Source of the DNA: a virus
Lineage: Duplodnaviria > Heunggongvirae > Uroviricota > Caudoviricetes
Reading direction: 5' to 3' (one strand)
Virus record (IMG/VR): IMGVR_UViG_3300045988_158233
DNA: 64,000 nt
Positions 17,234 to 19,972 of the stretch are shown here, one piece after another. Both the position numbers and the translations under genes were made by a program. Under the pieces are notes generated by a model. The model had not been told where the DNA came from. It saw nothing but the letters and a program-made list of their open reading frames with translations, and did no database searches. Each line of letters begins with the position of its first letter. Position 1 is the stretch's first letter.

Positions 17234-18008
17234 AAACATCACGATAAGTATTTACTTACTTATCTTTTATGTATAAGATGACTTTGTTTTCGTTGAGACG
17301 CGACTGTTTGAACTTAAATACAAGTGCAAACGAAGAAGTCTATCTGGCAGTAGCCTAATAAGCCAAACACCAGCGAGGTCAGTTTCCAGCCTCGTTACCG
17401 AAATGGGACACACTGAGCGAGTGTGATTGCAGAACGCAGGAGGGAACATTCATGTTCCCTCCGATGAAGTAACAGAATGGGCGGTTGGTATATTTTCAAC
17501 TCCATATGACTCCCGGATTCTTAGCCACTGACCGCCCATCCTGTTACGTCATTTTGTTCAATTATGTCGTTTATACTGGGTTAAAAAGCGGCGACGTAGC
17601 CCGGCTGGTATGGTTAGCCAGCACACAACGTTGAGGCCATTACATTTTTATCAATTCTAAGGTTCTATTCACAGAGATACCGGCGAGCGTTGATATGTAA
17701 CATGTTGGGCAAACATTCAATCGGAGTAGTGGCCTCAACGTTGTGAAGACAGGATTGTTGTGTAGGTTTAACCACTGTTGCCATTGGTGCCTGTTTTCAC
17801 AACAAATGATTCCATACATCACATTGTATAAATTACAAAGTAGGTGCTGTCCTCAAAAACATCATCTACTTAAAGATTTTGCCTACTATTGAGCGAAGTC
17901 GAAAGCGTCTGGCACTAACGAAAAGTGCAAGTAGCGGTGCGTTTCCTGGCAGAAACTAAACCGTCGCGATTGGCACTGTTGAGTAATAAATACTGGCAGT
18001 GTCGAATT

Positions 18009-18083
18009 GATGGTGTAGCTCAGCGGTAGAGCAGTTGGCTGTTAACCAACTGGTCGGTGGTTCGAATCCACCCACCATCGCCA
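18009..18083 (+). tRNA. tRNA-Asn (anticodon GTT)
   Basis: Manual fold: acceptor gatggtg/caccatc, T-arm ggtgg-ttcgaat-ccacc, anticodon loop ctGTTaa, 3' CCA encoded. Confidence 0.75.
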
Positions 18084-18088
18084 ATTTA

Positions 18089-18175
18089 GGAGAGTTAGTC
18101 CGTAGAGGTAGCGGGGTAGACTGTAAATCTACTGTCATTGCGACTCGGGTGGTTCGACTCCATCACTCCCCACCA
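18089..18175 (+). tRNA. tRNA-Tyr (anticodon GTA), class II with long variable arm
   Basis: Manual fold: anticodon stem gtaga/tctac with loop ctGTAaa, long variable arm, T-loop ttcgact, 3' CCA; one A-C mismatch in the acceptor stem. Confidence 0.65.
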
Positions 18176-18179
18176 AATT

Positions 18180-18255
18180 GCCGGTTTAGCTCAGTTGGTA
18201 GAGCGCCTGCCTTGTAAGCAGGATGTCAGCGGTTCGAGTCCGTTAACCGGCACCA
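18180..18255 (+). tRNA. tRNA-Thr (anticodon TGT)
   Basis: Manual fold: acceptor gccggtt/aaccggc, anticodon stem cctgc/gcagg with loop ctTGTaa, T-loop ttcgagt, 3' CCA. Confidence 0.75.
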
Positions 18256-18479
18256 ATACAACGATAAGATCATTACGGTTAATCGTCGTTCATGTGCACA
18301 ATGACTGGTCGAAAGGTAGTGATCTTACCGTTGTGGTGGATTCGCAGACTGATGCGATAGCTTTCTTGGATGTTAGGGAAATGCGGCCGCAAATCTTCCC
18401 TTTCGCGAGCGGTGATCGTCCGTAGTCCTAATTGGCTGCACCGTATGCCGGAGATTCAGTACCGGCTATCACAACGGCC

Positions 18480-18566
18480 GGAGAGTAGGGAGCATGGTGC
18501 TCAAGCGGTCTTGAAAACCGTCCCATTGCGCAAGCGATGATGGTTCGATTCCATTACTCTCCGCCA
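18480..18566 (+). tRNA. tRNA-Ser (anticodon TGA), class II with long variable arm
   Basis: Manual fold: acceptor ggagagt/actctcc perfect, anticodon loop ctTGAaa, long variable arm, T-loop ttcgatt, 3' CCA. Confidence 0.7.
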
Positions 18567-18722
18567 GACACAGCGTTGAGCGGTTTGGCCTTTTAATCAA
18601 CTCGATTAAGACTCCGCTAACATAAACCAGACCGCTCAACGCTGTGATAGACAATTACGGCAGACGTTCTTAACCATAGCTTGCTAACATCCTAGCAACA
18701 CTTTTTTTTCAGCGCAAAATTC

Positions 18723-18744
18723 AAAGGGGCTTCGGCCCCTTTTT
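18723..18744. terminator. Bidirectional rho-independent terminator
   Basis: aaaggggc-ttcg-gcccctttt, flanked by A-run on one side and T-run on the other; separates the tRNA cluster from the convergent minus-strand gene. Confidence 0.7.
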
Positions 18745-18751
18745 GGCTGGG

Positions 18752-19972
18752 TTAATTAAAACCGAATGAATTAAGTTCTGCTTTGAATTTATCGACCATT
18801 TTTTCAACTTCGTTTACAATTGCGTGAATCTCTTCGTCTTTTCTCGGATTAGAATTGAGGTCAAAATATGCCTTATATAAGGCATATTTTGACAAGCTTC
18901 CTTCAATATTTTCAGAGAAAATATTGGTACGACCATCAGTTAATAAGATATCAGCAGATCGGGAATTTAAATTATATTTATAGTAAATCTTTATTAGTCT
19001 GCTTATCTCTTTTTCATTCTTGATTACCCTCTGTCTTTTACCAGCAATATTAAGACTCCAGCCTACATAACTAGTCAGATCGGAATTAAACTTACACACT
19101 TCCGCATCAGCTTTTTCCATATTTAGATTAATATTATTTCTCATGTGTAGCGGTAATTCGTTGAATTTTTGCTGTAAATGCTGTTTGCAGGGATTGTTGT
19201 AAGACCACAGAATTGCGAACGTAGCTCTTTGCATCCGGGTATTCAGATCGATGTTAAAGTTCTCACGATCACGAATCATTTCATCTACATAAAACTCTAC
19301 AGCTTTTCGGTATTCTTTGTTAAAGATCTCGGTAACATACATTTCTAAATAATGGACTTTCGAGATTGCCTCATCAAAAAAAAGCTCACTCTCAAAGAAG
19401 TTGTATTTATTTAAGAGATTAGAAAGTCTACTTAAGTCATAGGTTTTATTATTTTCAATATTAAGACCAAAAATGGCAATTAACAGACTTACTTTATGAT
19501 TAATACTGCTACGTAATTGAGCTATATAAATTCTCTTTTCATCTTCTGCTGATGACAGTAGATAAAACTCTTTATCTAAATAATTTAAAATTAGAATTAT
19601 GTGATTTACATATTTAATGTAAATAGGTTGTTTTGTTACATAATAATAAATGCTTTTGATGGAATTAATGCTCAATTTCGTATTAAACTCTTTGTCATTC
19701 AACAAAGTGTTATTTACGTCCTCAAGTAATTTATCATGTTGCTCTAGTAATATTCCGTACCATTCCTTAAAAGAGGCTTTTTTCATTTCAAGAAGTGAAT
19801 CTGCCGTTAATTGTGTTGCCTTCATTGCAGCTTTTGCACTATTTCTTGCCTCATAAGCAGCCCAAGCAGTAACAAAAGTAGCAAGTGAACCTATAGCCTC
19901 TTTGTATTCTTTAGCCACATCCCAAAAAATAATAGTTATTACACACAATATGAGAATTAATATTAAAGGCAT
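18752..19972 (-). CDS. Hypothetical membrane-anchored protein (AT-rich moron; candidate exclusion/abortive-infection-type function)
   Basis: 406-aa minus-strand ORF; N-terminal TM helix PLILILILCVITIIFW then a K/E/N/I/Y-rich helical domain; very AT-rich codon usage compared with neighbours (by eye). Confidence 0.6.
   Translation of the reverse strand: MPLILILILCVITIIFWDVAKEYKEAIGSLATFVTAWAAYEARNSAKAAMKATQLTADSLLEMKKASFKEWYGILLEQHDKLLEDVNNTLLNDKEFNTKLSINSIKSIYYYVTKQPIYIKYVNHIILILNYLDKEFYLLSSAEDEKRIYIAQLRSSINHKVSLLIAIFGLNIENNKTYDLSRLSNLLNKYNFFESELFFDEAISKVHYLEMYVTEIFNKEYRKAVEFYVDEMIRDRENFNIDLNTRMQRATFAILWSYNNPCKQHLQQKFNELPLHMRNNINLNMEKADAEVCKFNSDLTSYVGWSLNIAGKRQRVIKNEKEISRLIKIYYKYNLNSRSADILLTDGRTNIFSENIEGSLSKYALYKAYFDLNSNPRKDEEIHAIVNEVEKMVDKFKAELNSFGFN

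Follow-up and report, generated by a model that had tools for sequence, protein, structure and literature searches.

A tmRNA-like RNA without a tRNA half and a recurrent family of long-stem hairpins in a probable RNA-only operon of an SSU5-type phage-plasmid

The 64,000-nucleotide (nt) stretch of DNA analyzed here (IMG/VR virus record IMGVR_UViG_3300045988_158233; hereafter the window) belongs to an SSU5-type phage-plasmid of Escherichia coli with 98% identity to Escherichia phages Cyrano and CMS-2020a, and its interval 17251-18744 holds four tRNAs, a family of long-stem hairpins and an RNA that resembles part of transfer-messenger RNA (tmRNA). Among described systems, this RNA is closest to the coding piece of the two-piece or permuted tmRNAs of Alpha- and Betaproteobacteria. 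With that piece it shares a 10-codon frame that opens on GCA and has no start codon, an A-rich upstream context with A at -4, a tag that resembles ANDENYALAA of E. coli, and an H-type pseudoknot after the stop codon. It differs in that the 64-kb window offers no acceptor stem, T-arm or CCA to go with it, in that its tag ends in LAVA and not LAA, and in that its 5′ end has complementarity to the tmRNA of the host. The same tag module underlies the ARAGORN “ssrA” of Felix O1-like phages (Moogle and Mijalis announcements), where the tag is ANDNVFLAVA; that call joins the tag to unrelated tRNA parts over 750 nt holding three tRNA genes and a promoter, and when we ran ARAGORN on Mijalis, a permuted tmRNA was again called. 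In the literature searched, phage tmRNA-like RNAs appear only as such one-line mentions in Felix O1-like genome announcements, and we found no account of a tag-only RNA, an antisense 5′ end or the hairpin family.

Stems cut by RNase III are familiar from polycistronic stable-RNA and phage transcripts, including rRNA operons, T7 early RNA and the T4 tRNA cluster with its species 1 and 2 RNAs. The hairpins of the window likewise provide ~20-bp double-stranded stems between the stable RNA units of one predicted transcript, and the T4 cluster is likewise a phage tRNA cluster with extra stable RNAs; however, the window family has a sequence conserved across unrelated phages and hypervariable loops, which is atypical of known RNase III sites. 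Bacterial Y RNAs of the YrlA type have a GNCGAAN0-1G motif near the 5′ end, a tRNA-like domain in the order T-AS-D, and a gene beside rsr (PMC4201824). They share with the window’s hairpins a long terminal stem around a variable or tRNA-like internal module, and T-arms are present in the loops of some relatives. We rejected membership in the Y RNAs, as the window stems lack the GNCGAAN0-1G Ro-binding motif, their loops lack a T-arm, and they have no Rfam match. Finally, mycobacteriophage DS6A carries a tmRNA without a coding sequence that is reported to inhibit host tmRNA (cited in PMC11915505). The parallel is that of a phage-encoded partial tmRNA that may interfere with host trans-translation; DS6A has the opposite half, with the tRNA-like domain kept and the tag missing, whereas the window RNA keeps the tag only.

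The first-pass annotation of this locus had treated 17234-18008 as a ~775-bp non-coding leader. We found no conserved open reading frame (ORF) in this interval, as that annotation had held; its first ~340 nt, however, are a conserved structured RNA gene. Distant blastn matches to 17234-18008 had ~76% identity and lay in unannotated DNA of unrelated phages (Felix O1-like myoviruses, HK620/HK633 and Klebsiella siphoviruses); the segment common to these matches contains GCAAACGAAGAAGTCTATCTGGCAGTAGCCTAATAA, which encodes ANEEVYLAVA followed by two stops. The limits of the core RNA were set by three distant SSU5-like contigs (L246, L254 and L258) that have the element with no tRNAs nearby, in which conservation spans GTTTTCG to ...GCCAGCAC, corresponding to window 17286-17623. 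Its parts are as follows.

17286..17623, plus strand: core tmRNA-like RNA, ~340 nt, with an mRNA-like domain, a pseudoknot and hairpins, and without a tRNA-like domain
17286..17309, plus strand: 5′ block complementary to E. coli tmRNA (ssrA), two helices, 20 pairs
17326..17361, plus strand: tag reading frame, GCA AAC GAA GAA GTC TAT CTG GCA GTA GCC TAA TAA, without a start codon
17373..17408, plus strand: H-type pseudoknot 3′ of the tag, with stem 1 at 17373-17378/17390-17395 and stem 2 at 17384-17387/17405-17408
17439..17462, plus strand: 11-bp hairpin GGAGGGAACAT/ATGTTCCCTCC, arms 17439-17449/17452-17462, perfect; folding z = -6.3 over 17436-17464
17464..17552, plus strand: 22-bp hairpin in the core RNA, arms 17464-17485/17531-17552, variable 45-nt loop; z = -5.4 over 17462-17554
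17604..17622, plus strand: 3′-terminal hairpin of the core RNA, 6-bp stem, 7-nt loop with an invariant GGU

Relatives were collected by two IMG/VR pattern scans, each of which gave at least 120 stretches, and the 137 loci discussed below are those listed. Among them, the tag occurs in 25 distinct versions, each of 10 codons and with no indel, and all 25 fit AN[DE]xx[YF]LAVA except one LAAA variant. The stop codon is TAA, TAG or TGA at a constant position, with one version lacking a stop (TTA). Synonymous changes make up 33% of codon differences in the tag frame vs 5-7% in the other two frames. The loci compared share no in-frame start codon, which is the behavior of a tmRNA resume frame and not of an ORF; in the Felix type, an in-frame TAG stands nine codons upstream of the tag with no start codon in between. 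We also considered a small ORF of 27 amino acids (aa) running from ATG 17278 and ending in the tag, which was rejected because this ATG lies within the -10 element and is not conserved; it is upstream of the predicted transcription start, and in-frame start codons are missing from other phage types. An alternative frame, xUG CAA ACG...UAG, was rejected on its 5-7% synonymous differences.

Downstream of the tag, the pseudoknot is supported by compensatory changes. Stem 1 has four covarying versions in 60 unique sequences, each complementary (GTGAGG/CCTCAT, GCGAGG/CCTCGT, GCAAGG/CCTTGT and GCAGGG/CCCTGT), and all versions of stem 2 are complementary as well (CCGA/TCGG, CCAA/TTGG, CCAG/CTGG, TTCC/GGGA, CTCC/GGAG and TTCC/GGAA). 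No equivalent of pseudoknot PK1 was found upstream of the tag. The 11-bp hairpin, which the first-pass annotation had placed near 17438-17461, shows two-sided stem changes in relatives, with a loop of 2 to 22 nt, and the 22-bp hairpin changes on both sides at six pairs (alignment A2). The stem of the 3′-terminal hairpin is invariant, save that 35 sequences have C-G in place of a U.G; its loop keeps a central GGU (AUGGUUA, UUGGUUA, GUGGUAA or UAGGUGA), and its shape is like that of an anticodon stem-loop. A helix closing the 5′ and 3′ ends of the core RNA (GCGAC/GUCGU), predicted by RNAalifold, was discarded, as it is invariant, or broken where relatives differ.

Against the Rfam models, the window core RNA scored 17.3 bits for beta_tmRNA (E=0.012-0.015; gathering score 84) and 15.3 bits for tmRNA_permuted (E=0.38; gathering score 47). 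The best relative, the homolog in phage Mijalis (Mooglevirus), reached 29.8 bits for tmRNA_permuted vs 47, E=6e-4 for alpha_tmRNA, and E=2e-4 across positions 51-311 of the standard tmRNA model, and in Mijalis the permuted, alpha and standard models all cover the tag and pseudoknot region only; the weak beta_tmRNA match of the window also falls on the tag segment. A covariance-model scan had been suggested in the first-pass annotation; run at gathering score and at E up to 10, Rfam returned only the tRNAs, which alone were above threshold, and these sub-threshold tmRNA matches. ARAGORN identified no tmRNA in the window, relaxed threshold included, and T-arm plus NCCA sites in the 64-kb window belong to the four tRNAs only. 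In the remaining 45 kb of the plasmid, neither ARAGORN nor Rfam identified a tRNA or tmRNA; canonical, permuted and relaxed-threshold forms of a tRNA-like domain were sought and not found in the window or in that remainder. Using tblastn with an E. coli SmpB query, we found no SmpB homolog on the plasmid; tagging would need host SmpB. The RNA has a tag frame at a resume codon without a start codon and a 3′ pseudoknot, and it has neither a tRNA-like domain nor an Rfam match at the gathering score. Lacking the tRNA-like domain, it is by definition not a tmRNA, though its middle part is tmRNA-like. Judged by its sequence, the core RNA is a homolog of tmRNA’s mRNA-like and pseudoknot part, the tRNA half being absent, and its tag may be used in trans-translation by hijacking that of the host.

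The 5′ block suggests one way in which this could happen. Within it, GUUUUCGUUG is complementary to ssrA nt 95-104, and GCGACUGUUU is complementary to ssrA nt 82-91, including the resume codon G90-C91. The 20 pairs of the window with host nt 82-104 were matched by 4/1000 mononucleotide shuffles and 0/300 dinucleotide shuffles. Docking on host nt ~54-105 is common to all 49 distinct 5′ regions, with energies of -21 to -47.6 kcal/mol, and host tmRNA beats the RNA’s own tag region as a pairing partner in 46 of the 49. Collinear minus-strand blocks to host 97-106, 81-91 and 68-81 were present in 10/10 representative sequences from seven phage groups, and the 5′ block matches the host codons GAC GAA AAC, not the phage’s own variable codons. 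A test for adaptation to the host had to be set aside: the GUUUUCGUU block is identical in the Salmonella phages SSU5 and Sl26 and in E. coli phages, and it therefore provides no informative covariation.

We hypothesize that the 5′ end pairs with host tmRNA. A tentative extension, which we regard as possible but doubtful, is that the RNA acts in trans to swap tags, the phage tag replacing the host degron by way of host tmRNA and SmpB. Under this model, the single-stranded 5′ end would pair with the single-stranded start of the host frame, nt 82-104 (~-8 to +15 around the resume codon). The host resume codon would thereby be masked, and that of the phage, along with its frame, would be tethered to the tRNA-like domain of the host. 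Stalled ribosomes would continue to be rescued by host Ala-tmRNA and SmpB, which would now add the phage tag ending in LAVA in place of the ClpXP degron ending in LAA, and the hairpin and tRNA-like scaffolds of the same operons, described below, might serve as a natural expression system for exchangeable RNA cargos.

The second component of the locus is a family of long-stem hairpins. The first-pass annotation had reported two 16-bp perfect inverted repeats, one on each side of the tRNA cluster, and had read them as related elements. Both repeats are where it placed them, with the sequences it gave, and their stems extend to 20 bp; three further long hairpins (at 18253-18339, 17464-17552 and 17740-17803) had been passed over. 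Apart from that at 17464-17552, listed above, the hairpins are as follows.

17624..17745, plus strand: hairpin module 1, 20-bp stem, 82-nt loop, arms 17624-17643/17726-17745, directly after the core RNA; z = -6.8 over 17622-17747
17740..17803, plus strand: 14-bp hairpin, arms 17740-17753/17790-17803, the 5′ arm overlapping the preceding 3′ arm; z = -3.2
18253..18339, plus strand: hairpin module between tRNA-Thr and tRNA-Ser, arms 18253-18276/18316-18339; z = -4.6 over 18251-18341
18569..18646, plus strand: hairpin module 2, 20-bp stem, 38-nt loop, arms 18569-18588/18627-18646; z = -9.8 over 18567-18648

For each of the five segments whose limits are given with the z-score, 0/200 shuffles were as stable as the native fold. 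The arms of the 17624 and 18569 modules are 95% complementary, with a U.G on the plus strand as the lone non-Watson-Crick position, and the arm of the 18253 module shares 80% identity with its counterpart in the 17726 module. A motif search of related loci identified 153 modules in 94/124 loci, of which 69 are unique; the stem consensus is CACAAC(A)GGTAAG-RGCAYTG...CAGTGCY-CTTWCCGTTGTG, and the window’s three family members are the variants ACAACGTTGAGGCC, ACAACGATAAGATC and ACAGCGTTGAGCGG. This family alignment bears out the relatedness of the stems, whereas the shared 12-nt core on which it had been proposed is unenriched in the window (12 matches with ≤2 mismatches vs 9.75 expected). A wider search with the pattern GCAAACGA-N20-40-AAACACCAG over 596 Gb of genome contigs was too unspecific, its matches being mostly chance. 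The 14-bp hairpin at 17740-17803 is kept in the SSU5-like alignment.

Stem covariation was counted on an alignment of 55 stems. In this alignment, 93.9% of cells are paired vs 35-59% with slid partners, a percentage inflated by the selection of modules on inner-stem complementarity (≥6 of 8), which does not inflate the diversity of pair types. Two-sided changes, the compensatory differences that the first-pass annotation had proposed looking for, occur at 10/20 stem pairs (128 cells), and the observed values for percentage paired, number of cells, pair types and covariation score were each equaled by 0/500 shuffles. U.G predominates at columns 18/33 (34/55 sequences), and across the stems G.U outnumbers A.C by 97 vs 34; since a U.G wobble is a C.A mismatch on the other strand, the helix has been selected in plus-strand RNA. 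Placement is equally regular. The window’s family stems begin 2 nt past the tRNA-Thr CCA (18253 module) and 3 nt past the tRNA-Ser CCA (18569 module), a start at -1 to +3 nt from the CCA of tRNA-Asn, -Thr or -Ser is seen for 20 unique modules, and 21 unique modules lie at a fixed distance 3′ of the tag module. In relatives, modules of the 18569 type are found behind tRNA-Asn or tRNA-Ser and show a compensatory change from G-C to A-U. The orientation of the modules agrees with that of the tag and tRNAs in every locus examined. As a group, the hairpins are RNA helices that recur among phages, each directly 3′ of a stable RNA. The covariation, the U.G on the transcribed strand and the position 3′ of tRNAs fit the RNA-level role, processing site or structured RNA, that had been among the earlier suggestions.

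The remaining components and the boundaries of the unit are as follows.

17251..17279, plus strand: sigma-70-type promoter, -35 TTTACT at 17251-17256, 17-nt spacer, -10 TAAGAT at 17274-17279, read by eye
18009-18083, plus strand: tRNA-Asn(GTT), from ARAGORN and Rfam
18089-18175, plus strand: tRNA-Tyr(GTA), from ARAGORN and Rfam
18180-18255, plus strand: tRNA-Thr(TGT), from ARAGORN and Rfam
18328..18477, plus strand: tRNA-like scaffold RNA between tRNA-Thr and tRNA-Ser, abutting tRNA-Ser, with a cloverleaf-like minimum free energy (MFE) fold
18480-18566, plus strand: tRNA-Ser(TGA), from ARAGORN
18681..18744, plus strand: two tandem intrinsic terminators, read directly from the sequence

Based on promoter spacing, transcription is predicted to start at G17286. 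The promoter is kept in 51 SSU5-like relatives, with a -10 of TAAGAT, TATGAT or TATAGT at a constant distance from GTTTTCG; it scores 8 of 12 in a consensus scan, which is under threshold, and in other phage types this position is taken by a strong promoter (TTGACA-17-TATAGT or TAGATT). Terminator 1 consists of TTGCTA/TAGCAA followed by T8 (18681-18709) and terminator 2 of GGGGC-TTCG-GCCCC followed by T5 (18726-18744); the consensus scan did not list them, and the only in-operon match of an intrinsic-terminator scan, 18342-18357, was discarded as the D-like hairpin of the scaffold. That scaffold has a closing helix (18328-18339/18466-18477), the D-like hairpin, a T-like hairpin (18447-18451/18462-18466) and a variable middle, and the z-score of its MFE fold is -0.8. 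Its 19 unique versions have invariant ends around a hypervariable middle of 30-172 nt, and the D-like stem shows compensatory changes (GCGCA/TGCGC, GCACA/TGTGC and TCGCA/TGCGA). The tRNA sets of relatives are Asn only, Asn+Ser, Asn+Thr+Ser or Asn+Tyr+Thr+Ser, and the tRNA content of close relatives changes stepwise by one tRNA plus hairpin unit.

A predicted start at G17286 and terminators at 18681-18744 delimit a unit of ~1.45 kb that holds only RNAs. The interval 17251-18744 is thus probably a single promoter-to-terminator operon of stable RNAs without a protein gene, punctuated by the hairpins. It would comprise four kinds of component: the tmRNA-like RNA, the long-stem hairpin modules, four tRNAs and the tRNA-like scaffold RNA. 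We propose that 20-bp double-stranded stems part neighboring units during folding and act as RNase III-type cleavage sites, as blocks to 3′ exonucleases, or as both, whereby the polycistronic precursor would be cut to stable pieces, the loops being exchangeable cargo. Transcription and nuclease processing of the operon are what its layout predicts; RNase III-type cleavage or exonuclease protection would be the most economical mechanism for stems after each unit, and the near-perfect 20-24-bp stems at 17624, 18253, 18569 and 17464 have the size of RNase III stems.

Several points weigh against this account of the operon and its core RNA. Every Rfam tmRNA match, in the window and in relatives, is under the gathering score, and no tRNA-like domain or SmpB that could account for translation of the tag was detected on the plasmid. 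The antisense match is statistically modest: its energy z-score is -0.8 for the window type, and the two-helix statistic is not significant for the L246, Moogle, P7, Ackermann and Carvaje types. Such weak duplex-energy and Smith-Waterman z-scores arise because U-rich shuffles likewise dock on the A-rich host region. As for the modules, the paired percentage carries the inflation given above, and a conserved stem sequence together with 29 loop classes suggests more than generic double-stranded RNA punctuation.

That last point leads to the best-surviving alternative, that the hairpins are small RNAs in which the stem is a scaffold displaying a loop cargo (an antisense seed, a decoy or a tRNA-fragment mimic), with the middle of the tRNA-like scaffold used likewise. 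We consider it possible, though not the likelier explanation. The loops of the modules fall into 29 unrelated classes of 26-93 nt inside near-identical stems, one cargo recurs at differing positions and in differing phage families, T-arm-like hairpins such as GGGTTCGAATCCC occur in some cargos, two related cargos apparently differ by compensatory changes (ACACG/CGTGT vs GTGCG/CGCAC), and the invariant ends of the tRNA-like scaffold around its variable middle repeat the pattern. The window’s own loops, however, lack a T-arm, and loop diversity may equally reflect weak constraint and recombination at the stems; a cargo function is also compatible with a punctuation role and does not exclude it.

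The first-pass annotation had further considered that the two repeats flank the tRNA cluster as a pair and are ends of a small mobile cassette carrying the tRNAs; this would make them elements acting in DNA, such as recombination sites. As a pair they do not hold up, since the hairpins are self-contained modules, at least five in the interval, and relatives carry them singly after tRNAs or the tmRNA-like RNA; in one relative (L088), the upstream hairpin (17624-17745) is cleanly missing. This clean loss, the differing tRNA content of relatives, the shuffling of cargos between phages, and arms that begin ...AAC and end GTT..., loosely like attC, would suit a DNA element. Nevertheless, such an element is improbable: U.G outnumbers A.C on the transcribed strand only, the segment 17622-17747 folds better on the plus strand (-47.8 kcal/mol, z -6.8) than on the minus strand (-39.3 kcal/mol, z -4.8), the modules share the orientation of tag and tRNAs, and Pfam identified no recombinase among the seven ORFs at 15.1-20.4 kb searched. 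Homologous recombination at 20-nt identical stems can account for the shuffling, and the cassette idea survives in an evolutionary sense only, with modules and tRNAs reshuffled between phages.

Decay of a captured tmRNA gene accompanied by neutral palindromes, without present function, would agree with the missing tRNA-like domain and the sub-threshold covariance models, but we rate it very unlikely. The frame is intact, with a stop whose identity varies at a fixed position and an excess of synonymous changes; covariation is present in the pseudoknot and stems, and the element is spread over seven or more phage groups and ~5% of complete E. coli genomes. This pattern of conservation largely refutes decay. 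Least credible of all, terminators or attenuators would also be stable stem-loops within a non-coding transcript, but no U-run follows any hairpin (none after 17745, 18339 or 18646, as the first-pass annotation had noted for its two repeats), the hairpins lie upstream of tRNA genes that need transcription, and real terminators stand at 18681-18744.

The proposed RNA operon lies among genes for an ATP-dependent DNA ligase, four small ORFs, a 406-aa ORF on the opposite strand and a glutaredoxin. Plasmid pGMI17-003_2 is 100% identical to the window across the tested stretch 17270-17560, and the tag element is present without annotation in 258/5426 complete E. coli genomes, nearly always on ~110 kb plasmids. 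The remainder of pGMI17-003_2 (L124; NZ_CP031136.1 20000-65600) has metG (methionine-tRNA ligase) and apbC beside phage structural genes, and IS1 interrupts a tail gene there. Within the opposite-strand ORF (minus strand, 18752-19972, 406 aa), which has no Pfam match, a perfect 17-nt palindrome GTCAAAATATGCCTTAT/ATAAGGCATATTTTGAC lies at window 18860-18893.

The same set of parts occurs in the HK620 late leader between qut and tQ, in Felix O1-like tRNA clusters and Carvaje-like phages, in the C1-controlled P(ban) leader of P7 (tag ANDDLMMAAA), and in Ackermannviridae (tag ANDDVVLMAA); a further blastn search identified 254 phage records. In unrelated phages, the tag module is accompanied by the same tRNAs (Asn GTT, Tyr GTA, Ser TGA/GCT, Thr TGT, Arg TCT and Met), and Vi1-like phages (PMC3121705) are among those with this tRNA set and the tag module. 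In P7 (AF503408; L264 985-1075 and ~2052-2138), the tag module and pseudoknot lie downstream of the C1 operator Op(ban), and the leader includes a tRNA-Ser of the window’s type, missing from the record annotation, as well as hairpin modules after tRNA-Thr and tRNA-Ser.

In Ackermannviridae phage KWBSE43-6 (L265 2240-2540), two tRNA-like pieces with good T-arms lie downstream of the tag; one ends ...AACGGCTCCA, similar to the tmRNA 3′ end GCUCCACCA, with a perfect 17-bp hairpin CACATCTGGGAGGTATC immediately 3′. ARAGORN calls neither these KWBSE43-6 pieces nor the hairpin. Citrobacter phage Mijalis (L002 1978-2045) has a tRNA-like element, GAAGGttcgattCCTTC ACCCTTC GCCAAACA GAAGGGT TA GTGTAATGGCAGCAC, in the order T-arm, closed 7-bp “acceptor” hairpin, D-arm, which is a YrlA-type or permuted arrangement; an element of this type also occurs in locus L249, ~500-570 nt upstream of the tag. 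ARAGORN’s chimeric tmRNA call used part of the Mijalis element as the 3′ tRNA domain.

If our interpretation is correct, P7, HK620-like, Felix O1-like, Vi1-like, SSU5-like and Carvaje-like phages and ~5% of complete E. coli genomes carry an unannotated RNA gene that retains the translated half of tmRNA and drops the tRNA half. At the least, these loci call for annotation: genome records now leave them blank, or wrongly show small ORFs or a chimeric ssrA there. The hairpins and the tRNA-like RNA, as scaffolds that accept different inserts, would be nature’s equivalent of engineered RNA scaffolds and might be a source of phage RNAs with regulatory or anti-defense roles, and the tag itself raises the question of whether a phage can reprogram the tag added by host ribosome rescue.

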